From NCBI GenBank assembly GCA_965203465.1, contig CBDBCR010000004.1, forward strand, positions 1 to 64,000: DNA of 64,000 nt. The letters run 5' to 3'. Of the stretch, positions 5,305-26,521 are shown in pieces. This DNA comes from Nitrosopumilaceae archaeon (GTDB lineage Archaea > Thermoproteota > Nitrososphaeria > Nitrososphaerales > Nitrosopumilaceae). The notes beneath the pieces are model-generated. The model did not search any database. It was not told the DNA's origin and saw only the letters and a list, made by a program, of their open reading frames with translations. Numbering within the stretch: position 1 is the stretch's first letter; every line of letters begins with the position of its first letter. A program made the position numbers and the translations under genes.

Positions 5305-5413
5305 AGCCGGCCGGGGGCCGATCCGCGGGGGGTTTTGCGACAATGACTGAACAAACAACCCAAACAGTAGCACGCGAGCCGGCCGGGGGCCGATCCGCGG
5401 GGGGTTTTGCGAC
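5305..5413. repeat. Orphan 37-bp direct duplication flanking a 35-bp AT-richer insert (72-bp period); candidate off-target spacer integration
   Basis: AGCCGGCCGGGGGCCGATCCGCGGGGGGTTTTGCGAC is identical at 5305-5341 and 5377-5413. Insert: AATGACTGAACAAACAACCCAAACAGTAGCACGCG. Confidence 0.9.
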
Positions 5414-5426
5414 CCCGCTCCACGGC

Positions 5427-5455
5427 TTATATATCGGGGGGGGGGGGGTGGGACT
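5427..5455 (+). promoter_or_regulatory. TATA box with a G13 homopolymer between TATA and the start codon of the giant protein
   Basis: TTATATAT at 5427-5434, G run at 5436-5448, GTG at 5456 (about 26 bp from TATA, leaderless geometry). Confidence 0.65.
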
Positions 5456-8400
5456 GTGAGGACGACTGCCGTCTGGTGGCTTGCGGTCGTTATAGTCTTG
5501 GTAGCCGCCGCCTCGGCGCTGCCCGGGGCCGAGGCCACCACGCCGACGCTGACCTCCAACGCCATGGACCTGCGCAACGACGGCACGTGGGCGGCCACCC
5601 TGACGCTGACGTTCAACACCAACGTAAAGGTGCACACCAGCGTGGACGACACGCTCAACGACATCACGGCCGAAGGGCAAAAGGGCGCTTCGCTGCAGAT
5701 AAGCGGCGCCACGGTCAAGGTATTCTTCCTGCCGCCGGCCGAAGAGACGCTACGAAGAGCAGACCACGACATAGACGTCAGCATAACGAGCACCGCGATA
5801 AGGTCGACGGACACCAGCACCGCCTACGGGGGCGTCACGAATTCGAGGGCCACCACAACCCAAGACTCCGTCGGCCCGAAGGTGGCCAGCGCCGCCCTGG
5901 ACAGGGACGGCGGGGTGCTGTACATCGTCACCGACGAGTCCATCGCGTACGGCGACTACAACGTCGCCAGCGCGAATGGCGGCGATGCACGCGTCCAACA
6001 AATCGCCGGCGTTGGATACGTCTTGCAGTACGGAACTTCCTTTGAAAACGTCACAAAATACCACGTGCGCGACGGCGCGACGGCCTCGGGCGGCGTCACG
6101 ATGGCCTCCTCCAACAACCCGAGCGTGCACCGCACGCCGACCCACGAGATCCGCTTCACGCTCAGCTCGTCCCAGCTTGCCACGGTGACCGGCTACACGA
6201 GCCCGCACCTGCACATGGACGCGGGCGCGCTCACGGGCATAGGTTCCCAATATCAACTCGACAACGCTGCCGTCTCAAGAGCCGAAAACGCGGCCATCGC
6301 AAAGGCGATAAACTACATACCCCGGGCGACCGCCGCGGAGCTGACCGTCGCCACGCGCGCCCTGTCGGTCACGTTCGACGAGTCGGTCACCAAGAGCTCG
6401 GGCACCTTTTACATACGCAACAGCGCCACGGGCGCCTACGCCGCGTCGACCGACGTGGCCGGCACGCTGAGCACCGTCTCGGGGACCGCCGGCTCTGCCA
6501 CGCTTTCGGCCTCGGACGTCACGAAGGTGCAGGGCATGGCCACGCCGCACCTGCACGTCAACGCCGGGGCGGTGACCGACGGCGGCGGCGCGGACAACCT
6601 CAAAAAAGCGGTGGCGCTGACGATCACGTCCCCGGGGCCGGCGCTGTCCGGGGCCACGCTCGACGAGAACACGCGCACGCTCACGCTCACGATGGACAGG
6701 ACGGCAAAGTCGGGCGACGCGGACGTGACCCAGTCGAACATACTCATAAGGGACGGGGCAGGCACGAGCGGCGGAACCGCGCTGACCGGATCGACCGTAT
6801 CCTCTACGGGCAACAGCGCGACCGTCACGCTGACGCTTACGCCCGCGCAGGTGGCGACGGTCACGGGGTACGCCGCGCCCCACGTGTACCTGAAGGCGGG
6901 CGCGGTGAAGAACACCTCCGACCAGGCCAACGTGCTCTCGGCGACGTCGGTGGCGCTGGGCATATACCCGGCGCTCGAATCGGCCGTCGTCGACCTCAAC
7001 AACTTTTCGACCGGCAGCGGCCAAAACACCTCGTATTACGCCGGCAAGCTGGCGCTCAAATTCAACGTGGACGTGGGCGTGAGCACGAGCGACGCGGACA
7101 CCCTCCCAAAGATAACCGTGCGCGAGGCGGACAACTCGCCGACGCTCACGCTGGATACGGACGCCTCGATCATATCGAGCTCCAGCACAGTCGAGATAGG
7201 GCTGAGCAACGCGCAAAAAGAGGCCGTCAGGGCGATGTCGGGAAACCTGGAGGTGCTGATAGGGGCCAACGCCTTCAAGTCCGACACGGGATCGCTGGCG
7301 CTGCCCGCCGTCGGCGACGGGGCCCTGTCCATACCGAGCGCCAGCGTGACGCCGGACACCACCCGCCCGGCGATAACCTCGGTCTCCCTGGACGGAGAGT
7401 CGGGCCTGCTCACGCTCAACTTTGACGAGCTCGTGCAGGCAGACCCGGCGGACATCAACCTGAGCCACATGCAGCTGTACTATCCCCAGCGGGGAAACTT
7501 CCACCTGGGGGACTTGCTCGCGGGATACGCCGCCCTGTCCACCCCGTGCGTGCCCGCGCCCTGCCCCCAAGGCGGCTCCGCGGTCACGTCTTCGGGCGAT
7601 TCCACCGCGGTAACGGTCCAGCTCAGCGAGGAGCACCGCAAACGGGCCATAGCCCTGATCGATCCGCAGTATTGGATACAGCACCAGGAGTCGATAAAGG
7701 ACACGTCGGGAAACTTCACACCGAGTGCCGTCTTCGGCGGGGCCTCCTACACGCCGGACACCAACGCCCCCACGCTCGTGACCGCGGCGCCGAACGGGCC
7801 GGAACTCGACGAGGGCAGCGGGATACTGACGCTGACGTTCAGCGAATCCGTAAAGGATGGATCGAACGTGGATCTGACGCAGATCTTCATTGCGGGCAGC
7901 ACGGCCGCGAGCGGCGGGACGGCCCTGAGCGTCTTGGGGGACGCCTCCGAAGTGACATCCACGTCGGATACGGACTCTGCCATAACCGTGAAACTTCGCG
8001 AGCCGGCAAGGCAGGCTGCCATAGGGCACACCACGCCGTACGTGTACTTTGCCTCGGGCGCCGTGGTGGATCTTTCAAACCAGACCCTGGCCGCCTCGAC
8101 TGCAGCCGCCGAGATAACCGACACGGCCGACGACGATCCGCCCACCGTGGAGTCGGCGGCCCTCGACGAGGGCACCGGGATACTGACTATCACGTTCAAC
8201 GAGACCGTCGACGTCTCGAGCGCGAGCTCCAACGGCGCCAGTTTCGAGCTGCGCGAGGGCGCGAGCGCCACGGACAACCTCGCAAGCGAGGTGGTGCTGT
8301 CCGACGGCGAGATACAGTCCGGCCAGTCCGACGGCCTGACGCTCGTCTTCGAGCTCGACGAGGACAGCCGCAGGGGCGCCATCGCACTGTCCGACCCCTA

Positions 8401-11400
8401 CCTGTACGTAGCGGCCGGCGCCATAACCGACACCATCACGCCTACCGGCAACGGCATCGCCGCCATTACCCAAACTACCGGCGGCGTCGAGATCGCCGAC
8501 ACGGACGACGACGACGGGCCGGAGGTCGAGGAGGCGGCGCTCAACGAGGGCACCGGGGTGCTGACGATCACGTTCGACGAGCAAGTGGACATCTCCAGCG
8601 CGAGCTCCAGCGGCGCCAGTTTCGAGCTGCGCGACGGCGCGAGCGCGCCAAGCGGCCAAGCGGGCAATGTCGTCCTGTCCGACGGCGAGATACGGCAGGG
8701 CCAGTCCGACGGCCTTGAGTTCGTCTTCGAGCTCGACGAGGACAGCCGCCAGGGCGCCATAGCTCTGGCCGCGCCGTACCTGTACATCGCGGCCGGCGCC
8801 ATAGACGACACGATCGCCCCGACGGGCATCGCGGAGAATCTTGTAGGCACGGTGGCCGACATCACGCGCGACACCGTAAAGCCCGAGGTCGTGTCGGCGG
8901 CCCTCAACGAGGAGACGGGGCTGCTCGCAATCACGTTCGACGAGACCGTCGACGTGGGCAGCGCGACGGCGGCCAGTTTCCAGATACGCGACGGCCCGGG
9001 CTCTGCGTCCGGCTCTGCGGGCGAGATAGTCTTGTCCGCATCCGAGGTACAGGCGCAACAGTCCGACGGCACCGCGCTCAACTTTGAGCTTTCCGAGGCC
9101 AGCCGCCGGGGCGCCATAGACCTGGGCGATCCGTACCTGTACGTATCGGCCGATGCCATAAACGACGCGGTGACCATGGCCAACAGCGGCATCGCCCCCA
9201 ACGGCATCGCCGTTGCCAGCGCCGACATCGTAGAGACGGCCGACACCACCGCGCCGTCGCTCTCGACGGCAGCCTTGGACGAAGAGACCGGCATACTGAC
9301 GCTGACCTTCGACGAATCGGTAAAGGACGGCCAAGGCGTCGAACTGGACAGGATCTTCATCGGCGACGGCGCGTTCAGCTCGGGCGGCGAGCCGCTGACC
9401 GGCTCGACGGTGACCTCTTCGGACGCGACGACGGACGCGGCGGTGACCATAGGCCTGACCGAGACATTGCGCAAGGCGTCCATCGGCTACGCCGACCCGC
9501 ACGTGCGCCTGGCCGAGGGCGCCGTGCGGGACGTCTCCGACCAGGACATCGCAGCATCGGGCAGCTCTACGATCGCGGACACGCCGGACACGACCCCGCC
9601 GACGATCAGCGCCACCGACGGGCCCATACTGCACGAGCCGGCCGGCGTGCTGACGGTGGTCTTCAGCGAGTCGGTGCAGGACGGCGACGACGTGGATCTG
9701 ACCAAGATATTCGTAAACGACGGCCCGTTCACCACGGGCGGCACCGCGCTGACCAGCTCTTCGGGCACTTCGACCATGAGATCCACCGAGGACACCGACT
9801 CCGAGATACTCGTGACTCTCCACGAGACGCTCAGGCTGGCGGTCATCGCGTACACGACGCCGCACCTGCGCTTCGATTCGGGCGCCGTAAAGGACCTGTC
9901 CGGCCAGGCCATCGTGGCCTCGGCTAGCAGCACGGCCATAGGTGAGGTCACCGACCTGACGCCGCCGGTCGTCTCGTCGGCGGCGCTCAACGAAGAGACC
10001 GGAATATTGACGCTCACGTTCAACGAGAGCATCGACGTGTCGACGGCCGACGGCGCCAAGTTCAGCCTGCGTGAGGGCGCAGGCGCGTCCGCCGGCTCTT
10101 CGGGCGAGCTGGTCCTGTCCAACGCGCAGGTGCGGCCGGGCCAGTCCGACGGCACCGCGTTCGTATTCGAGCTCTCCGAGGCCAGCAGGCTGGCGGCGAT
10201 AAATTTGGGCGATCCGCGCCTGTACGTGTCCGAAGGCGCCATAGAGGACGACTCGCTCAACAGGATAGCGGCAAACACCGCGGGGATAGACGTCTCGCAG
10301 ACGCTTGACGCGACTGACCCGGCCCTCTTGGCGTCGGGGCCGGGCAGGCCGACCCTCGACGAGGCCACCGGGGTGCTGACTCTTACCTTCGGCGAATCGG
10401 TAAAGGAGACAGCCGACCTGGCAAAGATCCGCATCCGCGACGGCCCGGGGACCGGCGGCACCGCGCTGACCGGCTCGGAGATCACGTCAGCTCACATCGA
10501 CGCGGTCGTCGCCGTGGATCTGAGCGAGGCGCTGCGCAAGGAGGCCATCGGGTACGCCGATCCGCACGTGGTCCTCGAGTCGGGCGCCGTCGTGGACCTT
10601 TCAGACCGGGGCGTCGCCGCCTCGGCCGCGCAGATATCGGACAGACCCGACTTGATCGCGCCGTCGCTCTCGTCGGCGGCCCTCGACGAGGCCACCGGGA
10701 TACTGACGCTCACCTTCGACGAATCCGTAAAGGACGGCCAAACAGACCTGTCAAAGATACGGCTCAACGACGGCAGGTTCAACGCCGGCGGCACCGCGCT
10801 GACCGGCTCGGCGGTGACCTCCACCCAAGACACCGACCCGCTGGTGACGGTGCAGCTTACAGAGACGCTGCGGCAGATAGCCATCGGCTACGCGACCCCG
10901 CACGTGCGCCTCGAGTCCGGCGCCGCCAGGGATCTGTCCGACCAGGGCGCGGAGGCCTCCGCCGACAGCACGGCCGTCTCGGACGCGCCCGACCCGTCGG
11001 TGCAGCCCAGGATCAGGTCGGCCGAGGCGGCCTCCGCGTACACGGTGAGGGTCTCGTTCAACCTGCCGCTGACAGGCGCGGGCCCGGCAGGCTCTTGGTC
11101 GGTGGGCGACAACGCGGCCGTCTCGGTGAGGGTGCCGACCGAGCGCGTCGGGACGCTCATCTACGTCGGGGACGACATGGGCCAGGTGCCGGCCGTGCTG
11201 TCCGGGGATCTGGTCTCGGTGGGCGGAGGCTACTACCGCGTGACCACGGCCGACATTTCCGCAAGGGCCGTATTCTACGCGTACGTCACGTTCGGGAGCC
11301 CGGTCGAGGCCGGCCAGTCTATATCGTACTCGCAGCCACCGGATCCGTCCGGCGTGGCCGACTTTGACGGGCGCGACCTGGCCGCGCAGTCCGTGCAGAT

Positions 11401-14400
11401 ATCCGGGCGCTCGGCGTACACGCCCGTGGAGACGGCCGCGGTCTCTGCGTCGCTGGTAAGGGACGGCATGGCCTATTCGGGCGAGGCAAGAAAGGTGGTA
11501 AACTACGATCCGTCCTACGAGTATTCGGTCCCGGCCGTCACGCGGTTCCACAGCCTCTGGGGCGTCGAGGACGTCGCCACCTACACGGTGGACGGCGACG
11601 AACTCGTGCGTGCCCTGTTTTCGGGCAGCTGGGAGACCGTCAGGTACGATCCGCGCACCGAGACTGCACACCTGTCGGGCAGGGTGGGATCGCCCGAGAC
11701 GGCGCCGGCCGCCGTGAACCTGCGCGGCTCGGTCGGCACGTTCGCCGTGGCGGCGTCGGCTTCCGACGACGGGATCCAGATAGTAAACATCACCGACCCG
11801 TACGCGCCGCGCCAGGCCTCGTACGTGGCAGACAACCGCTCGCCTGCCTACGGCTGCGCCTTCCCGACGGTCCACGCAAGCCTTCTGCTCCACTGCGTGA
11901 ACCTGGCCGGCACCCCGGGGCTGAGCCCGCTGACCGAGCTCGACGGCGCAAAGTCGGTCGACATCGCAAAGATAGGGGGCCGCACGTACGCCGTCGTGGC
12001 CGGCAAGGTGGACAACGGCGTGCAGATGATAGACATCACGGATCCGGTAAACCCGCAGACCGCCGACTCTGCGGACGACACCGACTGGGCCGCCGGCATC
12101 CACCCGCTGGTCTCCCCCAACGACCTGGCCGTCTTTTCGTCCGGGGGCAAGACGTACGTGGCGGTGGCAGCAGAGTACGGCGGCGGCTCCCTTGGCGCCG
12201 TCACCGTGCTGGACATCAGCGATCCGGCCCTGATACGGCCCGGCTCGCTAATCGAGGCCGGCGCGCGGGACGGCGACGGGAGGGAATACGATTCGGTAGA
12301 GTCGCCGGTCAGCATCGACACTTTCGAGTCCGGCGGCTCTGCGTACGCGATCGTCTCGGCGTACGACGCAGGCTTTGACTCGGCGGTCCAGATCATCGAC
12401 CTTTCGGATCCGGCCGCCCCCAAGCGGGCCTCCTCGATAACAGGCCAGATGCTCGACAGGGACGGGCGCGCCTTCGCCGACTTTGCGATCGAGACGCCCG
12501 GACAGGTGCGCGCGTTTTCGGCAAGCGGCGTGCCACACGCCCTGCTTGCATACTCGGACACGCTCCAGATAGTGAACCTGGCCGATCCGTACGCGCCGCG
12601 CTCGGCCGGCGCCGTAACGGGGGGGCCGGGCCCGTTCAGCGGCCTGCTCGACGTAAAGGGGGTGGACGTGGTGCAGGCCGGCGGACGGGTGCTGGCCGCC
12701 GCGACGGCCGGCTCCGGCGACGGGCTGTTTTTGATAGACATAACCGATCCGCGATCCCCGCAGCGCTTGGCGTACGTGCGCGACGGCCAGACCGATCCGG
12801 CCGGCGCCCGCGTCGCGCTGGCCGCGCCTCTGGGCGTCTCGCTCTCCGTCATCGACGGGCGTCTGTACGCCTCGGTGGCCTCTTCGCAGGACCGCGCGGA
12901 GGCGCCGGGCCAGGGCGGCGCGCTGGCCATCTTTGATCTTACAGAGCCTGCAGGGCTGGGAAGCGCCAGGACCGTCACGATCGGCGCGCTGGCCCCGCTT
13001 ACCGGCCCGGTCTCGCCGCTGGGCCTGCACTGGGAGGCGGCCATGAAGGCGGCGGCCGCCGATCTCAACGCCGAGCTGGAAGCGCAGGGCGCGGACTGGC
13101 GCGCGGCGCTGGACGTGCGGGACACGGAGGGGCGGCCCTCCGAGGCTCTCGCGCAGCTCGTAAGCCTGGACATGCTGGGCGTAAAGGCGGTCGTCGGGCC
13201 GGCCACCTCGGCCAACCTGGCGCAGGTAAAGCAGTACGCCGAGGACAGGGGCATCACGCTGATAAGCTACGGCTCGACTGCGCCCTCGCTGCCCGAGGAC
13301 AACCGGCAGTTCGGCCGCGCCCTGTGGGACGCGGTTCCGACCGGGGCGCATTCGCTCGCAGAGGCCGACGGCATATTCCGGACGGCCCCGCCCGACGCGC
13401 TGGCCGGCTCGTTCGCAGCCGAGCAGCTGGCCAAGGCGGGCAAGACGCACGTCACCATAATATTCCGGGACGATCCGTGGGAGCGCGCGCTGGCCGAGCA
13501 GATACGCGACGAGTTCGCCGTAGGATCCCGCACGGCCGCCTTGGTCCCGCACCAGACGCCCGTCGCCGACCCGGCGGCGCTCGCCGCCGCCATGGCGGCG
13601 GCGCACAAGACGGGCAACTCGGCGGTGCTGACCCTCGAGTTCAGCACCGACGCCCTGACGGTAATATCGGCGGCCATCGGCGCCTCGTCGGCGCCGTCGG
13701 CCTCCCCGGCCGCCCGGGCACTCGGAACGTCGCAGTGGTTCGGCATGGTGGGCCTCGACGACGCCGTCTCGCACCCGCTCACCGAGCGCGGCGTGGAGCT
13801 GCTCCGGCTGGCAGCCTCGGGCACCTCGACGCTCGAGACCATACTGGACAGGGACCGCATAAGGGCGGTGGCGGCGCAGCTCGCGTCCTCGAGCCCGTCG
13901 GCAGAGGCCGCGCCGTTCCGCGCGGCGTACTCTGCCACCGTCGGGCTGTCCGCCTCGGGCCCCATCTCGGCCGAGGCCATAATAGCGCAGTCCGAGCGCG
14001 TGATAGAATTCGTCTCGCAGACCCGGTACACGCTGATAGAAGAGGTGCCCGACACGGACCACCCGTCGTTCGCGCGCGTCACCGGCTCCATCTCGTCGAT
14101 GCTGGCCGACGAGCACGGCCAATTCGGCGTGCCGACGTACGCCGCCTACGACGCGGTCCGGTTGCTGGGCAGGGCCATGACGCAGTCGAGCTCGCTCGAG
14201 GCGGGCCAGCTGCGCTCGGCCATACCGGCGGCCGCCGACGGGCACCGCGGCCTGGCCGGCGACGGCACGCTCGACGCCAACGGGGACCTGGCTGCCGCGG
14301 AGTTCGAGCTCGCGCAGGTGCGCGGCGGCCAAGCCGTGAAGATACCGCACTACGAGCTGCCGCTGACGATAAGCCGGTTCGAGGTCTCGTCTCGCCACGC

Positions 14401-16585
14401 GTCGGGCCTGGCTTCGGACGGGACCGCCGTGGACGTATCGTTCGAATCCATGGAAGAGTTCTCCTTCGAAAGCCTGAGGATAAACGGCCGCGACGCGTTC
14501 GTCTCGGCGAGCAGCTCGACGGGGGTCACGGCGGGGTGGCTCGCGCGCGGCTCGGACGCCGACGGGCCGCTGGAGATAGCGCTGGGCATCACGGTGGACG
14601 GGATACGGGCGACGCTGGGCGCGCGGCACCTGACGGGCCCCAACGTGGCAGTCGACAACACGCCGCCGCAGCTCGAGTACGCCGCGCTGGTCGGGCAGCG
14701 CACCCTGGCGCTCTTTTACTCCGAGCCGGTGGAGACCTCGGCTCCGGACTATGCGTCGTTTTCGTACGGCTCTTCGTCGGCCCCGGCGGCCTCTTCGGTG
14801 CGCGGCTCGGGGACCGCCTCGGTCCTGGCGATGCTGGGCCCGTCCGACGATCCGATGGAGCCGGGCATGCGCATAATCTTTTCAGTCTCGGGCGTGGCAG
14901 ACAGGGCCGGAAACGCGCTGTCCAACGCCGGCGCGCAGTCGCTGGTTCCGGCGGACACGCGCGACGGGACGGTGGTGCTGCGTGACACCGCGCGCGACGG
15001 GCGCGCCCAGCTCGAGATTCCAGCCGATTCGCTGGTAAGGACGGTGGTGGCCCCGCAGCCCATAGCGCTGGACGCCTCGCTGCTGCCCAGCCCCGCGCCG
15101 GCCGACGCGCGCGTGGCCTCGGCCGGCGGAAGCACGGCCGAATTCGCCTCCGGCCTGTCGGTGCGCATCGGCTCGGTCACCGTGGTGCTGCCGGCAGGCC
15201 TCCAGGTGGGCGGGCTGCCCGCGGACCGCACGCTGCGCATGTCCGCGCCGAGTTCGGCCGTCCCGTCCGAGGACTATGTGACCGATTCCGGGCTGGATTC
15301 GTCGCGGTACGCCACCCTGGTGGAGGTGGGCGATCGGGCCGGGCGCGTCGAGCTGTCGCTGCCGGCCCGCATAGAGTTCGGCTCGCTCGAGGATCTGGTC
15401 TTCGTGGTGAGCGGCGGGCGGACCCTCGCGGTACAAGAGTGCTCGGGCCTGACGGCCTCGTCCCCGCTGGCCGCGGTGGCCGCGCATCTGGCCTCGCTGG
15501 AGGGCTCGGACCGGACCGACGCGGGCTCTTGCTACGTGCGGGAGGGCTCGGCTGTCTGGACCAACCACTTTTCGGCGTGGGGCACCGGATCCGCGCTGCA
15601 GCGCGGCGGCTCGGAGTGCGACGACTGCACCCCGCCGACGCTCGGGCTGGATTCGTACGGGACAAAGCTGGTCGACGGAGGCTTTTCGTACAACGGCCTG
15701 TCCTCGGACGTGGCGTACTTTTTCACCCCGTACCCGCTGATCGAATCCGAGGTGGGGAAACAAAACACCGTGGTACTAAAGATGTACGAAAACGAGGGGC
15801 CGGGCAACGTAGAGCACGTCTCGCTCGCATTCGGCCTGCGCTCCGGCGAGGTCATATCGGAGAGCAGGGCGGTCATAAACTACGACATTTCGTTCGACGG
15901 GAACGGCTCGGTCTCGGTCATAGATCCGGATGGCGCCATCGACATCGACACGCTGTCGGCCTCGCACGACGTGGCAGAATGCTCGCCGGGCTCTTCGCTC
16001 GAGTGCCTCTCCGTTACGATAACCCACATGTTCAGGGCCCCTCTCGAGTTCGACATCGTCGGGACCGACGTGTGGGACAGGGAGAGGAATTCGTGGCAAA
16101 ACTACTACAACCACGGCATACACGTCTCGGGCGAGCCGCTCGACCCGCAGCCCGGGGTGCCGGTCAACGGGGGCGATCTCGTGCTGTACCCGGTATCCTC
16201 GGACACCGACGTGATGATGGACGCCGGCGGCCACCTGTTCAAGCTCTCGCCGGAAGGCGACTACGTGCCTCTGTCCAACCAGTCGAGGCTGTACCACGAC
16301 ATCGACGAATCGATGTACCTGTACGACGGCGTCCCGATGCAGGGCTACGACCGCTCCGATCCGCAGTTCCGCGACTACCTGTACGCGCAGGTGCTCTCCG
16401 CCCAGCAAGTTTTGGATTCCATGATGCCTCCGTCAGAAGCAGGCGAGCCTGTCGCGGAACCGGCGGCGCCCGACCGCGGGGCCGCAGAGCAGCGCCTGCG
16501 CGAGGCCGTATTGGCCGAGCAGCGCAGGGCCGCGCTGCTCTTCGAGGAGCTGTTCGGGTACCAGCGCATCAACGGGCAGGACTGA
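5456..16585 (+). CDS. Giant (3709 aa) multidomain cell-surface protein / putative adhesin
   Basis: Signal peptide. More than ten ~125-aa beta-rich repeats (D-T-x-x-P-x-x-x-S-A-A-L-D-E-x-T-G-x-L-T-L-T-F-D-E-S-V). LVIVD-like repeats (IQIVNITDP, VQMIDITDP, VQIIDLSDP). An embedded type 1 solute-binding domain (TIGALAPLTG...VVGPATS...AYDAVRLL). C-terminal CDDCTPPTLGLD domain. Confidence 0.92.
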   Translation: MRTTAVWWLAVVIVLVAAASALPGAEATTPTLTSNAMDLRNDGTWAATLTLTFNTNVKVHTSVDDTLNDITAEGQKGASLQISGATVKVFFLPPAEETLRRADHDIDVSITSTAIRSTDTSTAYGGVTNSRATTTQDSVGPKVASAALDRDGGVLYIVTDESIAYGDYNVASANGGDARVQQIAGVGYVLQYGTSFENVTKYHVRDGATASGGVTMASSNNPSVHRTPTHEIRFTLSSSQLATVTGYTSPHLHMDAGALTGIGSQYQLDNAAVSRAENAAIAKAINYIPRATAAELTVATRALSVTFDESVTKSSGTFYIRNSATGAYAASTDVAGTLSTVSGTAGSATLSASDVTKVQGMATPHLHVNAGAVTDGGGADNLKKAVALTITSPGPALSGATLDENTRTLTLTMDRTAKSGDADVTQSNILIRDGAGTSGGTALTGSTVSSTGNSATVTLTLTPAQVATVTGYAAPHVYLKAGAVKNTSDQANVLSATSVALGIYPALESAVVDLNNFSTGSGQNTSYYAGKLALKFNVDVGVSTSDADTLPKITVREADNSPTLTLDTDASIISSSSTVEIGLSNAQKEAVRAMSGNLEVLIGANAFKSDTGSLALPAVGDGALSIPSASVTPDTTRPAITSVSLDGESGLLTLNFDELVQADPADINLSHMQLYYPQRGNFHLGDLLAGYAALSTPCVPAPCPQGGSAVTSSGDSTAVTVQLSEEHRKRAIALIDPQYWIQHQESIKDTSGNFTPSAVFGGASYTPDTNAPTLVTAAPNGPELDEGSGILTLTFSESVKDGSNVDLTQIFIAGSTAASGGTALSVLGDASEVTSTSDTDSAITVKLREPARQAAIGHTTPYVYFASGAVVDLSNQTLAASTAAAEITDTADDDPPTVESAALDEGTGILTITFNETVDVSSASSNGASFELREGASATDNLASEVVLSDGEIQSGQSDGLTLVFELDEDSRRGAIALSDPYLYVAAGAITDTITPTGNGIAAITQTTGGVEIADTDDDDGPEVEEAALNEGTGVLTITFDEQVDISSASSSGASFELRDGASAPSGQAGNVVLSDGEIRQGQSDGLEFVFELDEDSRQGAIALAAPYLYIAAGAIDDTIAPTGIAENLVGTVADITRDTVKPEVVSAALNEETGLLAITFDETVDVGSATAASFQIRDGPGSASGSAGEIVLSASEVQAQQSDGTALNFELSEASRRGAIDLGDPYLYVSADAINDAVTMANSGIAPNGIAVASADIVETADTTAPSLSTAALDEETGILTLTFDESVKDGQGVELDRIFIGDGAFSSGGEPLTGSTVTSSDATTDAAVTIGLTETLRKASIGYADPHVRLAEGAVRDVSDQDIAASGSSTIADTPDTTPPTISATDGPILHEPAGVLTVVFSESVQDGDDVDLTKIFVNDGPFTTGGTALTSSSGTSTMRSTEDTDSEILVTLHETLRLAVIAYTTPHLRFDSGAVKDLSGQAIVASASSTAIGEVTDLTPPVVSSAALNEETGILTLTFNESIDVSTADGAKFSLREGAGASAGSSGELVLSNAQVRPGQSDGTAFVFELSEASRLAAINLGDPRLYVSEGAIEDDSLNRIAANTAGIDVSQTLDATDPALLASGPGRPTLDEATGVLTLTFGESVKETADLAKIRIRDGPGTGGTALTGSEITSAHIDAVVAVDLSEALRKEAIGYADPHVVLESGAVVDLSDRGVAASAAQISDRPDLIAPSLSSAALDEATGILTLTFDESVKDGQTDLSKIRLNDGRFNAGGTALTGSAVTSTQDTDPLVTVQLTETLRQIAIGYATPHVRLESGAARDLSDQGAEASADSTAVSDAPDPSVQPRIRSAEAASAYTVRVSFNLPLTGAGPAGSWSVGDNAAVSVRVPTERVGTLIYVGDDMGQVPAVLSGDLVSVGGGYYRVTTADISARAVFYAYVTFGSPVEAGQSISYSQPPDPSGVADFDGRDLAAQSVQISGRSAYTPVETAAVSASLVRDGMAYSGEARKVVNYDPSYEYSVPAVTRFHSLWGVEDVATYTVDGDELVRALFSGSWETVRYDPRTETAHLSGRVGSPETAPAAVNLRGSVGTFAVAASASDDGIQIVNITDPYAPRQASYVADNRSPAYGCAFPTVHASLLLHCVNLAGTPGLSPLTELDGAKSVDIAKIGGRTYAVVAGKVDNGVQMIDITDPVNPQTADSADDTDWAAGIHPLVSPNDLAVFSSGGKTYVAVAAEYGGGSLGAVTVLDISDPALIRPGSLIEAGARDGDGREYDSVESPVSIDTFESGGSAYAIVSAYDAGFDSAVQIIDLSDPAAPKRASSITGQMLDRDGRAFADFAIETPGQVRAFSASGVPHALLAYSDTLQIVNLADPYAPRSAGAVTGGPGPFSGLLDVKGVDVVQAGGRVLAAATAGSGDGLFLIDITDPRSPQRLAYVRDGQTDPAGARVALAAPLGVSLSVIDGRLYASVASSQDRAEAPGQGGALAIFDLTEPAGLGSARTVTIGALAPLTGPVSPLGLHWEAAMKAAAADLNAELEAQGADWRAALDVRDTEGRPSEALAQLVSLDMLGVKAVVGPATSANLAQVKQYAEDRGITLISYGSTAPSLPEDNRQFGRALWDAVPTGAHSLAEADGIFRTAPPDALAGSFAAEQLAKAGKTHVTIIFRDDPWERALAEQIRDEFAVGSRTAALVPHQTPVADPAALAAAMAAAHKTGNSAVLTLEFSTDALTVISAAIGASSAPSASPAARALGTSQWFGMVGLDDAVSHPLTERGVELLRLAASGTSTLETILDRDRIRAVAAQLASSSPSAEAAPFRAAYSATVGLSASGPISAEAIIAQSERVIEFVSQTRYTLIEEVPDTDHPSFARVTGSISSMLADEHGQFGVPTYAAYDAVRLLGRAMTQSSSLEAGQLRSAIPAAADGHRGLAGDGTLDANGDLAAAEFELAQVRGGQAVKIPHYELPLTISRFEVSSRHASGLASDGTAVDVSFESMEEFSFESLRINGRDAFVSASSSTGVTAGWLARGSDADGPLEIALGITVDGIRATLGARHLTGPNVAVDNTPPQLEYAALVGQRTLALFYSEPVETSAPDYASFSYGSSSAPAASSVRGSGTASVLAMLGPSDDPMEPGMRIIFSVSGVADRAGNALSNAGAQSLVPADTRDGTVVLRDTARDGRAQLEIPADSLVRTVVAPQPIALDASLLPSPAPADARVASAGGSTAEFASGLSVRIGSVTVVLPAGLQVGGLPADRTLRMSAPSSAVPSEDYVTDSGLDSSRYATLVEVGDRAGRVELSLPARIEFGSLEDLVFVVSGGRTLAVQECSGLTASSPLAAVAAHLASLEGSDRTDAGSCYVREGSAVWTNHFSAWGTGSALQRGGSECDDCTPPTLGLDSYGTKLVDGGFSYNGLSSDVAYFFTPYPLIESEVGKQNTVVLKMYENEGPGNVEHVSLAFGLRSGEVISESRAVINYDISFDGNGSVSVIDPDGAIDIDTLSASHDVAECSPGSSLECLSVTITHMFRAPLEFDIVGTDVWDRERNSWQNYYNHGIHVSGEPLDPQPGVPVNGGDLVLYPVSSDTDVMMDAGGHLFKLSPEGDYVPLSNQSRLYHDIDESMYLYDGVPMQGYDRSDPQFRDYLYAQVLSAQQVLDSMMPPSEAGEPVAEPAAPDRGAAEQRLREAVLAEQRRAALLFEELFGYQRINGQD

Positions 16586-20101: not shown

Positions 20102-20142
20102 GCCAGGACGCAGAACATGCCGTATATGTTGGAAACGCCCCC

Positions 20143-20164
20143 TTTCTAAATTCGAATTCAGAAA
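20143..20164. promoter_or_regulatory. 22-bp palindrome, copy 1 (one mismatch)
   Basis: TTTCTAAATTCGAATTCAGAAA, about 40 bp upstream of the minus-strand start at 20101. Confidence 0.6.
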
Positions 20165-20187
20165 GGGCGCCGAACCGGCGGCCCGGC

Positions 20188-21189
20188 TCACCGGTCCCAG
20201 TCGAACCTGCGGCCCAGCATGGAGTAGAGGCGCTCGTTGTGGGGCCTGAAATAGCCGAGCAGCTTTTCGCGCGTGGCCTCCTTCATGGGCGCATAGTCGC
20301 CCTCGTTGAGGGACGCCGGCGCGCCCGCGCCGAACGGCTCGAGGCCCAGAAAAGAGTACACCCCGTCGAGCGCCGCCTGCCCGTCCCGCCTCATCTGATC
20401 GGCCTCGACTACCAGGATGTCCTTGGCGGCAAAATGCCCGAGCCACCGCTCCAGGTGCTCGGCGTACCTGCCCCCCTCGGCGTACCCGTAGTTGTAGCTG
20501 CGGTAGGCCTTGTGGCGCGGATCTGTCGCGCTGCGCTCCCTGTCCCAGGCCGTCCTCCGCCCTTCGTACTCTAGGGCGTCCTCGAACGTCATGCACTCGC
20601 GCCCGCGCCTGAGGCGCATGTGGTAGTGGGAGTAGGCCCTGTCCGCCGGGTTGCGCAGCGCCAGCACCAGCTTTGCGCGCGGGATCGCGCGCGCGGCCCT
20701 GGCCGGGGCGGCCGGGTGGGGAAAGTAGGAAGGGGTGGCCTCGCCGGTGATCTTTCTGGCGCCCGGCAGCGACTTTTCAAGGACGGTGGGGAAGTGCTGC
20801 CTGTACCAGAGGGCGCCGCGCTCGTGCATGCGGGGGTCGTCAAAGTAGTTGATCTCCTTGCGGACGGCGGGCAGCACGCGCGGGTGCCTGCATATCATCT
20901 CGTAGAGGGACGTGGTGCCCGACTTTGTGGCCCCTATCACGACAAAGTCCGGCAGGGCCCTCATGAACGAGGTGGCGGCCCTGAAGCGCTTTTTGGATCC
21001 GGCCACGGCCAGACGCGGGTGTCTCTGGAAGGGCCAAAAGTCGGCCTGTCCGGCCCGCCCCCCCTTGCCGCATACCGGACACGCATAGCCGATCACGCGG
21101 CAAGGCCGGGGGGCGTTATTTTTAATTTCTGTGGCGGGTTTAGCTTTCAGGCGCGGCCCGGATCCCGGCGGGACTGTATGCCGTGACAC
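20188..21189 (-). CDS. PAPS-dependent sulfotransferase
   Basis: LPDFVVIGATKSGTTSL (5'-PSB loop), KEINYFD, GEATPSY, LRNPADRAYSHY (3'-PB). The true start is probably downstream of 21189. Confidence 0.92.
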   Translation of the reverse strand: MSRHTVPPGSGPRLKAKPATEIKNNAPRPCRVIGYACPVCGKGGRAGQADFWPFQRHPRLAVAGSKKRFRAATSFMRALPDFVVIGATKSGTTSLYEMICRHPRVLPAVRKEINYFDDPRMHERGALWYRQHFPTVLEKSLPGARKITGEATPSYFPHPAAPARAARAIPRAKLVLALRNPADRAYSHYHMRLRRGRECMTFEDALEYEGRRTAWDRERSATDPRHKAYRSYNYGYAEGGRYAEHLERWLGHFAAKDILVVEADQMRRDGQAALDGVYSFLGLEPFGAGAPASLNEGDYAPMKEATREKLLGYFRPHNERLYSMLGRRFDWDR

Positions 21190-21318
21190 GCCGCTGTTTG
21201 GACGGTTGCCGGCCGGGGGCAGGCACGAAAGCTAAACCCCCGCCGGATCCGGGTATTTCGGGGGTATCCGGTCCGTGCCTGAGCGGGGGCCCCGCCCCGA
21301 GGGGTTTAGCTTTTGCGC

Positions 21319-21762
21319 CTAGAGCGCCTTTCTCATGTACAGCGCGACCCGGTCGCCCATCTCGGCGGTGTTCTGCAGGGCCTCCAAAAAGTCGCGCTGA
21401 TTGTGCCGCTCTTTGCTGTCCAGTACGGTATAGACGCCGGTCACGTGGCGGCCAAAGTCCTCCGAAAAGCGGCAGACGGCCCGTATGTCGTCGCAAAAGT
21501 TCCGTATGCGGTCGCGCATCTTTTCTTTCTGGGCCTCGGTGAGCTGCATGTAGCGGTAGTTTTGGCCGGTCCCGAGGGGGCACCTTGCCCCGATCACCAA
21601 TACGTCGGGCTGCTTTTTGGGGCCGAAGACTATCACGCGGCCGCCGGGCCCGCCCGCGTTGGTGACGGAGAATTCGAACGCCGTGTCCTTTTCGGTCTGG
21701 GATTTTTCCGTCTCGTAGCCCTCGTGGATCAGCCAGCGCTGGGCCGCGTCGCGCAAGTCCAC
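21319..21762 (-). CDS. Conserved archaeal protein, DUF2299-like
   Basis: 147 aa; WLIHEGY...VFGPKKQPDVLVIG...YMQLTEAQKEK pattern. Confidence 0.6.
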   Translation of the reverse strand: MDLRDAAQRWLIHEGYETEKSQTEKDTAFEFSVTNAGGPGGRVIVFGPKKQPDVLVIGARCPLGTGQNYRYMQLTEAQKEKMRDRIRNFCDDIRAVCRFSEDFGRHVTGVYTVLDSKERHNQRDFLEALQNTAEMGDRVALYMRKAL

Positions 21763-21798
21763 GCCCTCCTGCCCGGAAGGCTCAATATTTGCCCTTTG

Positions 21799-21820
21799 TT
21801 TCTGAATTCGAATTCAGAAA
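21799..21820. promoter_or_regulatory. 22-bp perfect palindrome, copy 2
   Basis: TTTCTGAATTCGAATTCAGAAA, about 40 bp upstream of the minus-strand start at 21762. Confidence 0.6.
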
Positions 21821-22554
21821 GGTTTGTCCATGCAGCACCTCTTGTACTTTTTGCCGGAACCGCAGGGGCAGGGGCCGCCCTTGGAGGGGTTTTTCCACCT
21901 GCGGGTTTCTTTGAACAGCTCCTGCGGATCTTTGGCTTCTGCCGCCTGCGGGTCCATCTGGCCCGAGTACATCTGCTCCAGGACGTCGATGCCGCTCACG
22001 TCGCTCGTTATGGTCCCGGTCAGAAGCAGGTTCTCGTAGTATTCGTACAGGTCGGGATCTATCAAGTCCAAGAGGCACTCGGCCAGCCACGTCCTGACCT
22101 CGAGGTCTTTCTCCTCTTTTACCGCCTCTTTGATCGCCGCGATCACAGCGGGCCTGCACTCGGGGTGGTCCAGGGCTATGCTGACCAGGGCGCGCCCGGC
22201 CGAGTGCCTAGGCCACATCTTGGCTTTGGTGTGGCGCACCAGGCCCGAGAGCGTCTCTACCGCCCCGGGCCCCGTGTGCGCCAGGACGCCGGGCAGATCT
22301 TGGTTGATCCAGTCGTCTTCGCTTTCGTCTTTGTGCACTTGCAGCAGGAACGAGTTTATGGCAAGCTGGGCCCGGTAGTGGCCCAGCAGGGCCAAGAGGT
22401 GGACGGCGCACCTGTTCCCTTCGCTGTCCGGGCCTTCGGTGGCCAGCCTGGCCAGCTCGGGGAACGCGGCGTCTCCCATACCTGTTATCTTTTGCACCGT
22501 TTCGGCATCGGTAGCAAAGCCGGATTTTGAGAGCTCGCGGATCGGGTCTTCCAC
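21814..22554 (-). CDS. DUF1186-like helical protein with C-terminal SEC-C motif (paralog 1)
   Basis: HEAT-like helices and C-terminal PCPCGSGKKYKRCC. Confidence 0.85.
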   Translation of the reverse strand: MEDPIRELSKSGFATDAETVQKITGMGDAAFPELARLATEGPDSEGNRCAVHLLALLGHYRAQLAINSFLLQVHKDESEDDWINQDLPGVLAHTGPGAVETLSGLVRHTKAKMWPRHSAGRALVSIALDHPECRPAVIAAIKEAVKEEKDLEVRTWLAECLLDLIDPDLYEYYENLLLTGTITSDVSGIDVLEQMYSGQMDPQAAEAKDPQELFKETRRWKNPSKGGPCPCGSGKKYKRCCMDKPF

Positions 22555-22877
22555 CGGACGGGGGGCGGGCCGGAAGGGTGATTAGTGTTTGGGCGGTGCC
22601 GGGGCCGATCCGGAGCGCCGCGCGCATATCTGCGATCCGCCGTTTCCAGGCGGCCCTGTCCTGATCGGCGTCGCGGCGGCGGCGCTGGCCGGAGCGCGCG
22701 CCGATCCGCTGGCAGATATGCTGCGTCGCCAGAACCAGTCGACTGTCCTGCCTGCGCGGCGCAGGGAGGCGGCGGCCTCGCGCCGTCATCCGCAATGCCG
22801 CCCCCGGATCGTGCCGTCGAGCATCTCGTTTTGCCGGATCTTGAGTCGGGCCGAGCTCGCTCTTGGCGACCTCGCGG

Positions 22878-23612
22878 CTAATTCTTGCCCATGCAGCACC
22901 TTTTGTACTTTTTGCCGGAGCCGCAGGGGCAGGGGGCGCTCTTCGAGGGGTTTTTCCACCTGCGAGTCTCCTCGAACAGTTCCAGAGGGTCTTCCTGTTT
23001 CAAGTCGTGCGGGGGCAGCTCTCCGGCGTATATCTGCTCCAGGTTGTCCGCGCTGACGACGTCGCTCGTTATGGTTCCGGTGAGCAGCAGGTTTTCGTAG
23101 TATTCGTACAGGTCGGGATCCACCAAGTCCAGGAGGCACTCGGCCAGCCACGTCCTGGCCTCGGGGTCTTTTTCGCCCGCCACGGCCTCCTTGATCGCCT
23201 CGATCACGCCGGCTTTGTGCTCCGGGTGGTCAAGGGCCGTGCTGACCAGGGCGCGCCCGGCCGCGTGCCTCGCCCACGTGTCGGCTTTCGGGTGGCGCAC
23301 CAAGCCCGACAGCGCCTCTACGGCCCCGGGCCCCATGTGCGCCAGGACGCGGGGCAGGTGCTCGGTGACCCAGTCGTCATCGCCGTCTTTGTACACTTCG
23401 AGCAAGAACGAGTTTATGGCGAGCTGGGCCCGGTAGTGGCCCAGTACCGCCAGCAGGTGGACGGCCGACTTTGACCCCTCGCCGTCGGGGCCCTCGGTGG
23501 CCAGCCGGGCCAGATCCGGGAACGCGGAGTCTCCCATCTCTGTTATCTTTTCCACGGTTCCGGCGTCGGTTTCAAAGCCGGACTCTGCGAGCTCTCGGAT
23601 CGGGTCTTGCAC
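22878..23612 (-). CDS. DUF1186-like helical protein with C-terminal SEC-C motif (paralog 2)
   Basis: Collinear paralog of 21814-22554, including the shared upstream GGGTGATTAGTGTTTGGGCGG. GTG start at 23612. Confidence 0.85.
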   Translation of the reverse strand: MQDPIRELAESGFETDAGTVEKITEMGDSAFPDLARLATEGPDGEGSKSAVHLLAVLGHYRAQLAINSFLLEVYKDGDDDWVTEHLPRVLAHMGPGAVEALSGLVRHPKADTWARHAAGRALVSTALDHPEHKAGVIEAIKEAVAGEKDPEARTWLAECLLDLVDPDLYEYYENLLLTGTITSDVVSADNLEQIYAGELPPHDLKQEDPLELFEETRRWKNPSKSAPCPCGSGKKYKRCCMGKN

Positions 23613-23694
23613 AGGACTGGGGCGGGCCGGAGGGGTGATTAGTGTTTGGGCGGGATCTTGTAGGTTTAATGGGCAGGGCCCCGCGTGAGCCCCG

Positions 23695-24609
23695 TTGGAC
23701 GTGGACGAGGCCGCCGCGATCGCGGCGGTGGGCGAGGAGAAACTGCGCAAGTGCGGCGGGGCGTGGGGCGGAGGCCCCGCGATGGCCCCGTGGCTGCAGG
23801 ACGGCGGGCTGGCGGCCCTGGTTCCGGGAGGCAGAAAGTGGATGAACGTGTTCGTCTGCTTTGGCAAAGGCGCGCCGGAGGTCTGGTGCGACTGCAGGCA
23901 GGCGGGGCCGTACTGCTCCCACTCTGCAGTGCTGATCGCCTATGCGGCCGCCAACTCCGGCTGTCTGAAGGCGGTGCGCGCCGCAGAAGACGAGGGGATA
24001 CGCGAGGCGGCAAAAGCCGCGGAACCGCGGGACCGGAAGGCCCTGGCCGCGGCGGCCTCGGGCGAGGATCCCGCCGACCGGATGGGCCTGCACCTGCTGA
24101 AGCTGCCGCCGCGTGGCCTTCCCCCGCGCGGCATCGACTACGGGCGCGTGCTGGACATGGCGTACGTCAACATGTCGTCGGACTGCTTTCTGGAAGAGTT
24201 TGCCGACGTGGACTTTGGCGTGGCCGAGCGCGTGGCGGGCAGGTTCGCCGCCTCTGGGTACCTGCCGGAGGCGGCGCGGATATACTGCGTCGTGGCAGAG
24301 ACCATAGCGAAGAACGTCGCCATCACGGACGACTCCAACGCGCACTATTCCTACTCGCTAAAGACGGCGCTCGAGAAACTGCAGGGGTGCATGGTGAGCA
24401 GGGCGGGGAGGCCGAGGAAAAAGATGCCCGACGGCGAGCGCAAGAGGTGCATTTCCTGGCTGGCGCGGCGCGCGGCACTAGACGATCCGGACTTTTTCAC
24501 CGATGACTTTGAGGCGGCGCTCGATTCGGTGTGCGCCGCGCCGGGGGACGGGGAGTGGCGCGAGGAGCAAGAGAGGCTGCACTCCGAGCAGTCCGCCGCC
24601 CGGAGATAG
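23695..24609 (+). CDS. SWIM zinc-finger domain protein (paralog 1)
   Basis: CDCRQAGPYCSH (CxC-xn-CxH) followed by a helical domain with DDSNAHY. Confidence 0.8.
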   Translation: MDVDEAAAIAAVGEEKLRKCGGAWGGGPAMAPWLQDGGLAALVPGGRKWMNVFVCFGKGAPEVWCDCRQAGPYCSHSAVLIAYAAANSGCLKAVRAAEDEGIREAAKAAEPRDRKALAAAASGEDPADRMGLHLLKLPPRGLPPRGIDYGRVLDMAYVNMSSDCFLEEFADVDFGVAERVAGRFAASGYLPEAARIYCVVAETIAKNVAITDDSNAHYSYSLKTALEKLQGCMVSRAGRPRKKMPDGERKRCISWLARRAALDDPDFFTDDFEAALDSVCAAPGDGEWREEQERLHSEQSAARR

Positions 24610-24943
24610 TTTCGGGCCAGGCGCAGCCTCCTTTCGTAAACCGGGCCGTGATCGCACAGGTGCGAAATCTGCGGCGTGGGGGTCTTTTGAGCCGTTTGAT
24701 CGATTCTTCCGCGGTCTTTAACGTCGCGGCTTCCGTCGCCATTCCTATACGAGCGCACGGCTTCTCCCCGTCGGCCAGGGGGGCTCAACCGCGCTCTTTT
24801 CTTCGGTTGCCTCCGAACGGCTTTGCCCCGTGCAGCCGTGCCGTCCGGCAATTCGCGGACGCTTTGGGCGGCCCGGGCAGATTGCGTCGCCGGATCGCGC
24901 ACGGCCTATACTTAAAACGACGAGGACGAACCCGCAGAATACG

Positions 24944-26521
24944 ATGAATCGACTCGCGGGCCCCATGATCGCAGAGCATCTGCGCGAACAAAACCCGTGG
25001 TGGCTGGACGGGGCATGGGACGAGAAAGACGCGGAGCTGGGGGCGTGGCGCTCCTCGCCGCTGAGGTGCGATCCCCGGCTGCGCCGCGAGATAGAATACC
25101 ACTCGGAGCCGTCCAACACGACGGTCTATTCGGTGCGCGGCCCGCTCGGGGCGGGGAAGACCACCATGATAAAGATGCAGATCCGCGACCTGATTGCCGG
25201 CGGCGCCTGCCCGTGGAACGTGGCGTATTGCTCGTTCGATCTAGGCGGCGAGCCGGCCGACGTGGCCGAGGCGGTCAAGGCGTACCTTGAGCTGAGCCGC
25301 CGGCGCCGTGACGGGCGGCGCTCCTTCCTGTTCCTGGACGAGCTGTCGAACGTGCTGCATTGGCAAAAGGGGGTGAAATGGCTGGTGGACGCCGGCCTCT
25401 TGCGCGACTTCATGCCTCGGCCATCTCCTTGAGCCTGACGCAAGGTGAAATGGCTGGTGGACGCCGGCCTCTTGCGCGACTTTACGGTGGTGACCGCCGG
25501 TTCGACGTCTGCGGACATCAGGAAAGCGACAGAGCTGATGCCCGGCCGGAGGGGGAGGGTGGCGGGCGGCCACGACAGGATTCTGTTCCCGATGGGGTTC
25601 GGGGATTTTGCCTGCATGATGGACGGAGACGTGCGGGCGATACTGGAGGGCGGCCGGGGCGGGGACCGGCTCTTGGCCGGCCTGCTGGGGGGCGAGATAG
25701 GCGAGGCCGTCGACCGGCTGTCGGCGCACCGCCCCGAGCTGGACAGGCTGCTGGCAGAGTACGCGGTAACCGGGGGCTTGCCTGCCGTCGTGAACGCAAA
25801 GGCGGCGTCCGGCCGCATTCCGGACGGCGCGTACGCGGACTGTGTGGGCAGAATCGCCGAGCAGTGGAGGCAAGCGTCGGGGAGCGAGGCGCCGCTGGGG
25901 CGGCTCGCCGGCGCCGTGGCCGAAAGCGCGGGCCGCCCGTTCTCCTGGAGCCAACTCGCCAAGGACGCCTCTTTGGGGGGTGCGGGGGCCGCAGCAGAGT
26001 GCGTGCAGACGCTGCAAGACATGTTCGTCCTGCACGTGCTGCACGGGTACGACGCTGCGGGAATGCCCGATGCGGACGGCAGGAAAAAGGCGTACTTTGG
26101 CGATCCGTTCGTGCGCCATGCATTCGGCGCGCCCCGGGAGGGCGGGGGCTTTGGCGCGTCGCTGCGGCGCGCCGGCGGCGAGCCGGGAATGGGCAGCATA
26201 GTGGAGGGCGCCGTCTGCGACTGCCTGGTCCGGCTCGCGCTCCGGTCCGGCTGCAACTTCCTGCAGGATTATTCGGACAGCCTCTTTTACTGGCAGGACG
26301 GCGAGGGCCGGGAGCTGGATTTCGTGCTGCGCACCCCCGAATACATGGCGCCCGTCGATGTGCGGTTCCGGCAGACACTGGGCGGGCGGGATCTGGCCCC
26401 CGTCGCCCGGTTCTTGGACGAGGCCCATGCCGAAAAGGGCATCGTCGTCTCAAAGTCCGCGCTGGAGGAAAAGGCAGACTACGCGGTGGTGCCCGCGTGC
26501 ATCTTTCTGCTAGGCGCCTGA
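24944..26521 (+). pseudogene. AAA+ ATPase with DUF4143-like C-terminus, interrupted by a 72-bp duplication/insertion carrying a stop codon
   Basis: EQNPWW, GPLGAGKTT, FLDELS, then TAGS, TGGLP, KKAYFGDP, RELDFV. Both halves are in the same frame; TGA at 25430-25432 lies in the insert. Confidence 0.85.
25372..25482. repeat. Orphan 39-bp direct duplication flanking a 33-bp insert (72-bp period); candidate off-target spacer integration
   Basis: GGTGAAATGGCTGGTGGACGCCGGCCTCTTGCGCGACTT is identical at 25372-25410 and 25444-25482. Insert: CATGCCTCGGCCATCTCCTTGAGCCTGACGCAA. Confidence 0.9.

Follow-up and report, generated by a model that had tools for sequence, protein, structure and literature searches.

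A type I-G CRISPR locus and two duplicated targets in the window

We analysed a 64-kb stretch of DNA from a Nitrosopumilaceae archaeon (the window), which makes up the initial 64 kb of the 78-kb contig C4 in a genome, G000, of 2.26 Mb, 4 contigs, and 65% guanine plus cytosine (G+C). The window contains a type I-G CRISPR locus and, at two sites away from its array, stretches of ordinary DNA that are duplicated exactly around a short unique insert; the origin of these two structures, and of others like them, is our subject. Coordinates given without a contig name refer to the window. At locus 1, a 37-bp target (5305–5341) recurs identically at 5377–5413 around a 35-bp insert of 46% G+C (5342–5376), and at locus 2 a 39-bp target (25372–25410) recurs identically at 25444–25482 around a 33-bp insert (25411–25443). 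The initial annotation had described both loci in these terms, as exact duplications (37+35 and 39+33) with a common period of 72 bp, and our analysis bears this out. Across the 2.26-Mb genome, neither duplicated sequence has a third copy; the locus 1 insert has no further match of at least 16 bases anywhere in that genome, and no genomic match to the locus 2 insert is longer than 17 bases.

The two sites differ in their surroundings. The second copy at locus 1 ends 13 bp before a TTATATAT box (5427–5434), a putative archaeal TATA box, and 43 bp upstream of the GTG of an open reading frame (ORF) of 3709 amino acids (5456–16585). Between the box and the GTG lies a run of 13 G residues (5436–5448), a candidate for a slippage-driven on/off switch of this ORF. 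Locus 2 falls within a gene for an AAA_14/DUF4143 ATPase (24830–26521, plus strand; Pfam AAA_14 at 24830–25429 and DUF4143 at 25445–26518). Its insert is in frame and carries two TGA stops in translation, and removal of 72 bp restores a single frame of 539 amino acids. The argument that a domain has been split comes from this restored frame, because the C-terminal piece alone gave no Pfam match to the remainder of AAA_14. On the reading frames, the event at locus 2 is predicted to have inactivated the ATPase gene.

The CRISPR locus has all of its features on the minus strand. The array (45112–48953) comprises 53 exact 36-bp repeats, ending in ATTGAAGC, at a unit of 70–75 bp, and its 51 ordinary spacers measure 34–39 bp (36 bp, n = 21; 35 bp, n = 14; 37 bp, n = 9). 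We take the array to be read on the minus strand because of the order cas2, leader, array and because of the 3' end of the repeat. A leader of 169 bp (48954–49122) separates it from cas2 (49123–49407; Pfam CRISPR_Cas2, E = 6.8e-16), which is followed by a gene for a Cas4/1 fusion of 547 amino acids (49412–51055; Cas_Cas1 2–282/283, E = 2.5e-86, and Cas_Cas4 4–159/160). This fusion, full length and adjoining Cas2, leader, and array, is the sole match to PF01867 in the whole genome. Two tandem type I-G effector modules (27730–41363), each recognized through Pfam by GSU0054, GSU0053, and Cas3 with HD, complete the system: the genome has two complete effector gene sets in tandem and one adaptation module. 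The Cas4-Cas1 fusion, Cas2, the GSU0053 and GSU0054 families, and Cas3 with a C-terminal HD domain together place it in type I-G. The initial annotation had equated the 72-bp footprint with the repeat-plus-spacer unit of the local array, and the 36-bp repeat and 70–75-bp unit agree with that equation.

Footprints of one array unit in two genomes

We searched the whole 2.26-Mb genome for similar structures with two scans, one collecting exact direct repeats of at least 24 bp at a distance of up to 600 bp and keeping only pairs with unlike flanks, the other covering offsets of 45–130 with up to 5 mismatches per 36. All isolated unlike-flank pairs with a duplication of at least 35 bp and a unique insert lie at 71–74 bp, which is the genome-wide period peak that the initial annotation had called for. 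These footprints number five (duplication plus insert, in bp): C4:5305 (locus 1; 37+35, period 72), C4:25372 (locus 2; 39+33, period 72), C1:421176 (41+33, period 74), C1:818675 (38+34, period 72), and C3:596454 (40+31, period 71). The expectation that two events in 64 kb would imply many genome-wide was accordingly too high, the count being 5 in 2.26 Mb. The 78-kb contig with the CRISPR locus holds two of the five (binomial P = 0.011), and the remaining 2.18 Mb holds three. The unique inserts are 31–35 bp long, or 34–37 bp if the duplication is set to 37, alongside array spacers of 34–39 bp. The five inserts have no sequence or termini in common, and the five targets are also mutually unrelated.

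Two further hits were set aside, namely C1:953946 (39+33, period 72), which falls in a region of short-unit repeats, and C3:745578 (period 72, 31/36), a possible sixth event in which only ~26 bases match. The genome also contains duplication–insert structures of other sizes (27+46, a possible sixth event with a period of 73, 30+21, 25+17, and 32+119), none of which pairs a duplication of at least 35 bp with a spacer-sized insert.

Locus 2 alone among the five footprints breaks a recognizable gene; the other four are intergenic or sit immediately after a stop codon. The C1:421176 footprint is ~40 bp upstream of an ORF for a trypsin-like protease, that at C1:818675 is downstream of a homocysteine S-methyltransferase gene, and that at C3:596454 extends over the end of a gene for an RNA polymerase subunit, stop codon included, with the gene kept whole by the first copy of the target. 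This distribution fits a history in which harmful hits were purged and harmless ones survived.

An empty form of locus 2 can be seen in metagenomic assemblies. One contig each in run X1 (study P1) and run X2 (study P2) joins position 25371 directly to 25444, with exactly 72 bp absent. The X2 contig, 607 nt long, has 13 other differences, so its origin is a related strain and not the strain analysed here. In the near-identical, source-like run X9, contigs end at 25401 and resume at 25453, which are the positions where 31-mers lose uniqueness if the 39-bp repeat is present twice, and these breaks lend indirect support to the filled allele. A deletion between the two 39-bp copies would yield the same empty sequence; insertion is the simpler account because the gene is intact in diverged strains. 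No orthologue of locus 2 turned up among the 40 relatives searched. The runs containing this sequence are labelled sponge and marine metagenomes. For the other sites the search for empty alleles that the initial annotation proposed found none: an exact search of the metagenome_contigs collection gave 0 matches each for the targets of locus 1 and C3:596454, and at the three chromosomal sites relatives from the genus and family are 66–77% identical around the site and diverge right at it, with no empty allele seen.

The same kind of footprint recurs in a second genome, G004, which carries the same genus label yet has a contig C1 of 38% G+C; the whole of this 2.16-Mb contig was scanned. Its Cas4/1 is 55% identical to that of the first genome, its repeat is 36 bp, and its array unit is 71–76 bp. 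One footprint, at G004 C1:1094039 (37+34), lies in a small multi-copy element, and its target is single in the 13 other copies listed. Another, at G004 C1:1938377 (37+35), also lies in a multi-copy element, and all 8 of the 8 other copies of that element contain the target once, uninterrupted, with matching flanks on both sides. Neither of these two clean inserts has another match in contig C1. A third structure, at G004 C1:1200408 (period 73, three mismatches between the copies), looks like an older, decayed event. Three further hits at a period of 72 (1863784, 1919323, and 2113370) were dropped as short-unit tandem repeats.

Probable integration away from the array, weighed against other explanations

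We consider it very probable that the footprints record off-target spacer integration by the resident Cas4/1-Cas2 into non-repeat DNA. In such an event, Cas4/1-Cas2 loaded with a prespacer of ~34–37 nt would attach each 3' end of the prespacer to a different strand of the target, at points ~37 bp apart, and host gap repair would then copy the target, left single-stranded on either side. The result, from one full-site event per locus, would be a target–spacer–target arrangement as long as one array unit. Judging from gene content, Cas4/1-Cas2 would be the catalyst. The initial annotation had proposed an integrase that is promiscuous in vivo and acts as an insertional mutagen, a proposal in line with the size of the footprints, the single Cas1 of the genome, the peak at 71–74 bp, the empty allele of locus 2, and the interrupted gene. 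Its companion idea, that such events seed new arrays, did not hold up: there is one insert per site, with a second spacer in none of the five footprints here, neither of the two exact ones in G004, and not in the decayed one. The targets lack the hairpin and handle of the CRISPR repeat, and the duplicated sequences fold into hairpins no better than random 40-mers do.

Where the inserts come from can be said most directly for C1:421176, whose insert matches C1:116470–116506, 305 kb away, at 36 of 37 positions; the matching stretch takes in all 33 bp of the insert and, on either side of it, 2 nt of the duplicated target. The other four of the five have no source within the genome, and none of the five matches nearby DNA, which disposes of the concern, raised at the outset, that inserts were copied from adjacent sequence. 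The four orphan inserts are presumably foreign DNA. Their mean G+C of 0.53 is below that of genomic 34-mers (0.648; P = 0.014) and of array spacers (0.59), which hints at a foreign origin. The array itself provides a second instance of self-derived sequence: its spacer at 48462–48496 equals C1:333631–333665 at 35 of 35 positions, within a gene with a NucS_C nuclease domain. The protospacer of this spacer has no TTN upstream on either strand, TTN being the protospacer-adjacent motif (PAM) chosen by Geobacter sulfurreducens Cas4/1 in the passages of PMC6547450 that we cite. Its absence at C1:333631–333665 may account for tolerance of the self spacer. The whole array gave no match to the phage collection.

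Turning to the targets, the initial annotation had seen traces of the repeat in both loci of the window, and the letters it quoted are indeed present (GGGGCCG at repeat positions 9–15 in target 1, AATGG in target 2). The likeness does not extend beyond chance. The best ungapped target–repeat match has p = 0.20, 0.83, 0.99, 0.065, and 0.094 for the five targets, and k-mers common to targets and repeat are not in excess (5-mers, P = 0.12; 6-mers, P = 0.34; 7-mers, P = 0.17). GGCCG, which the initial annotation had wished to see tested for enrichment, is likewise at chance level, with 3 of the 5 targets containing it where 28% of background 39-mers do (P = 0.14). TTGCG is present in 3 of the 5 targets and in 7% of the background (P = 0.003); it is not counted here, as it was chosen by eye after the targets had been viewed.

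Several observations weigh against off-target integration by Cas4/1-Cas2. The link between the footprints and this enzyme is one of size and co-occurrence. In a control genome free of Cas1, G005, the 396 kb covered contain no isolated pair at 70–75 bp, where only ~1 would be expected at the density of the present genome. Structures of other sizes (27+46, 30+21, 25+17, and 32+119) mean that some other process makes similar structures too. A foreign source was found for none of the inserts in viral_contigs or in 401 genomes of the order: the four without a genomic source had 0 exact matches in viral_contigs, a kind of search that the initial annotation had proposed, and locus 1 gave short, chance-level matches only against the 401 genomes. 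The protospacer of C1:421176 has no TTN upstream on either strand; this and the self-derived array spacer say little on the PAM, because both are self-derived and a cell survives self spacers that lack one. Empty alleles in relatives of this genome are known for locus 2 only, and the evidence for them consists of assembled contigs, not raw reads. The targets neither resemble the repeat nor fold better than random DNA, a comparison of low power at n = 5; according to the parts of PMC6698737 that we draw on, the in vitro off-target sites of Pyrococcus furiosus Cas1-Cas2 had repeat features. Last, the repeat is 36 bp in both genomes and a 36-bp duplication is seen in 0 of 7 exact events, all of them being at least 37 bp (P = 0.004 if the true length were 36), so that the canonical 36-bp ruler is not exactly reproduced.

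The lengths themselves are informative. The exact duplications measure 37, 39, 41, 38, and 40 bp here; in G004 both measure 37 bp. In this genome they exceed a fixed 36-bp duplication plus chance with P < 5e-5, and the excess of junction identity over a fixed 37 bp has P = 0.01 in this genome and a borderline P = 0.05 for all seven events. We infer that the off-target stagger is at least 37 bp instead of the canonical 36. At C1:421176, the identity of 2+2 nt between source and target might allow each incoming 3' end to pair in place of the strand it displaces. The steady excess of at least 1 bp offers a handle on the repeat-length ruler in the absence of the repeat.

Junction identity also bears on a rival explanation, in which template switching during replication, or microhomology-mediated repair, produces these structures: a stalled 3' end would copy sequence elsewhere and return upstream, leaving a duplication around a templated insert. 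The C1:421176 insert is templated on the same chromosome with a 2-nt overlap with the target on each side, the exact repeats exceed a fixed 36 or 37 bp plus chance (with the P values just given), and structures of other sizes occur in the genome, all of which such a process would accommodate. It sets no size, however, whereas the seven exact events in two genomes fall at 71–74 bp, the CRISPR unit of the genome concerned; four of the five inserts here and both in G004 contig C1 have no template in the sequence searched; the sole template lies 305 kb off and not close by; and once the G004 events are added, the junction excess over 37 bp is only borderline. We regard template switching as very unlikely. 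An error of assembly or polishing that duplicated a short stretch would be compatible with evidence that includes no raw reads and with the failure of X9 contigs to bridge locus 2. The inserts, however, are unique sequence and not copies of the flanks, the X9 breaks fall where a 31-mer graph containing the 39-bp repeat twice would break, the same structure appears in the independent assembly of G004, and the assembly has only 4 contigs, which together make an artefact exceedingly improbable.

Two other explanations invoke elements unrelated to off-target acquisition. The footprints could be the work of an unrecognized small mobile element, or of another integrase with target duplications of ~37 bp, and in keeping with this, direct repeats of 32–40 bp flank inserts of 119 nt (G000 C1:825746), 87 nt (G004 C1:22498), and 222 nt (G004 C1:1675575), and these longer inserts adjoin or contain multi-copy elements. 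We nevertheless think this very unlikely, since the five inserts share neither sequence nor termini and their length is that of array spacers; nor do we know of a transposase family with 37-bp duplications. The observations on these longer structures are as follows. A family of elements, each ~85 nt long with inverted ends and with stems in its interior, has 17 copies, including that at C1:825746–825928, and a consensus around TTCTGCCGGTCATGGAAGATTTCGCC...GGCGAAATTTTCAACGCCCGCCAGAA; one copy sits inside the 119-bp insert between exact 32-bp direct repeats at G000 C1:825746. In G004, exact direct repeats of 40 and 37 bp surround inserts of 87 and 222 bp (C1:22498–22664 and C1:1675575–1675870), which adjoin or contain a multi-copy element of ~70 nt and far exceed spacer length, although the duplications themselves are nearly as long as the CRISPR repeat. 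Alternatively, the paired direct repeats could be functional, for example as protein-binding sites kept under selection, as exemplified by a pair ~61–62 bp apart that is conserved between G000 C1:115347 and G004 C1:528185. Against this, locus 2 lies in a coding frame, adds stops, and is absent from related strains; one target runs across the stop codon of a gene for an RNA polymerase subunit; the targets are mutually unrelated; and the duplicated structure is not conserved where relatives (only 66–77% identical) align. Selection on functional pairs is, in our estimation, a most improbable source of the footprints. The conserved pair itself, with the core GACCCC..T.TTTCCACTCCAG repeated 61–62 bp apart around a partly conserved spacer (G000 C1:115347–115430, G004 C1:528185–528275), is probably a functional element and not an integration scar.

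Off-target integration by Cas4/1-Cas2 thus remains the reading that we favour. A wider version of it, which we put forward tentatively and hold to be rather doubtful, would make Cas4/1-Cas2 of sponge and marine Nitrosopumilaceae a recurrent natural mutagen with a stagger of at least 37 bp, no need for a repeat-like target, possibly some steering by a few bases shared between prespacer ends and target flanks, and a preference of ~18-fold per base for the replicon that carries the CRISPR locus. If that were true, the 32–40-bp repeats around inserts of 87–222 nt could be the same enzyme inserting longer DNA.

Apart from the footprints, the CRISPR locus has several irregularities of its own. The leader end of the array (48782–48953) consists of a full repeat, a 2-bp TA, and a repeat copy lacking 7 bases, after which come ~25 bp resembling the start of the leader, more sequence (100 bp in total), and a perfect repeat at the real leader; from its sequence this looks like a duplicated repeat–leader junction. 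The leader-adjacent position of the array holds no ordinary spacer. Two consecutive spacers are present twice (45219–45326 and 45796–45903), which points to an internal block duplication. A decayed mini-array lies between the effector modules (34337–34553), with others at G000 C1:325426–325788, C1:357765–357848, C1:715101–715182, and C1:805288; their variant repeats retain the ...GCGGCCCCATTGAAGC end and a short stem, and these scattered mini-arrays appear to be leftovers of older arrays. In run X9, contigs with other spacers and the same repeat as at 34470–34502 have depths of 68–168, against ~8 for this genome, and therefore more abundant organisms in the sample have the same repeat family. 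Adjoining the array is an ORF of 1160 amino acids (41564–45046) with matches to N6_Mtase, Eco57I, and MmeI_N, which looks like a fused restriction–modification enzyme. At the left end of the window, a 63-bp tandem repeat extends over 5.5 copies, 99% identical, at 1020–1364.

Relation to known integration systems

Off-target integration has been shown mainly with over-produced Escherichia coli Cas1-Cas2 and in test tubes, and at issue are its natural frequency, its cost to the host, and whether it founds arrays. The material described here amounts to eight footprints across two uncultivated archaeal genomes. One footprint comes with a broken gene and with an empty allele at the level of the population, and another with eight internal empty copies. 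From this material the mutational cost of adaptation can be estimated under natural conditions: for every 10 spacers kept in the array, this genome has roughly 1 stray insertion. The footprints are real off-target sites usable for the biochemistry of the Cas4/1 integrase, and the scan, which looks for isolated direct repeats at a genome's own array period, is a recipe applicable to any CRISPR-bearing genome. We found no report of natural footprints for type I-G, Cas4/1, or Nitrosopumilaceae in a literature search that took in few subscription journals.

The closest precedent is the work of Nivala et al. (2018, Nat Microbiol 3:310), in which, as described in passages citing it (PMC6698737, PMC7054753, and bioRxiv 10.1101/148544), over-produced E. 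coli Cas1-Cas2 integrated off target and gave rise to 'neo-CRISPR' loci; the natural evidence, from two other species, is called 'circumstantial' in bioRxiv 10.1101/148544. Going by those passages, the type I-E neo-CRISPR loci share with our footprints a spacer-sized insert, a duplication of about repeat length, a non-CRISPR chromosomal site, and Cas1-Cas2. They arose under laboratory over-production, whereas the present events are natural and come from an archaeon whose type I-G system has Cas4 fused to Cas1; and, compared with the E. coli case as those passages present it, the present one adds empty alleles, a disrupted gene, and duplications 1–5 bp longer than the repeat.

Two further Cas1-Cas2 systems resemble the present one in part. 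The type I-U (now I-G) module of G. sulfurreducens has, in the passages of PMC6547450 that we draw on, the same combination of a Cas4-Cas1 fusion and Cas2 and a main spacer length of 36 bp, and the GSU0053 and GSU0054 effector genes, named after that organism, are also found in this genome. The G. sulfurreducens module selects a TTN PAM in those same passages of PMC6547450, whereas the two self protospacers described here have none; these passages report no integration beyond the array. For P. furiosus, the passages of PMC6698737 that we cite state that full-site integration can be carried out in vitro, at some sites outside CRISPR, by Cas1 and Cas2 with no other protein, and full-site integration outside CRISPR is also what we propose for the footprints; those off-target sites had repeat features, whereas none were detected here, in a set of 5 (+2) targets only.

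Off-target acquisition is one proposed origin of isolated arrays, according to the part of PMC13142298 that cites Shmakov et al. 2020. Shmakov et al. (2020, CRISPR J 3:535) reportedly proposed a de novo origin of arrays in natural genomes by off-target integration into repeat-like sequences, whereas the targets here have no likeness to the repeat and there is no growth beyond one spacer. Casposons, by comparison, measure kilobases, have terminal inverted repeats, and give short duplications of ~14–15 bp. Casposase resembles the enzyme proposed here in being a Cas1-family integrase that makes staggered joins and a target-site duplication; in contrast to casposons, the inserts here are 31–35 bp long and share no ends, and the only Cas1 is the CRISPR Cas1. 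Set beside these systems, the footprints are a natural, multi-site, and replicated case of a phenomenon known from the laboratory, complete with a gene knockout and empty alleles.

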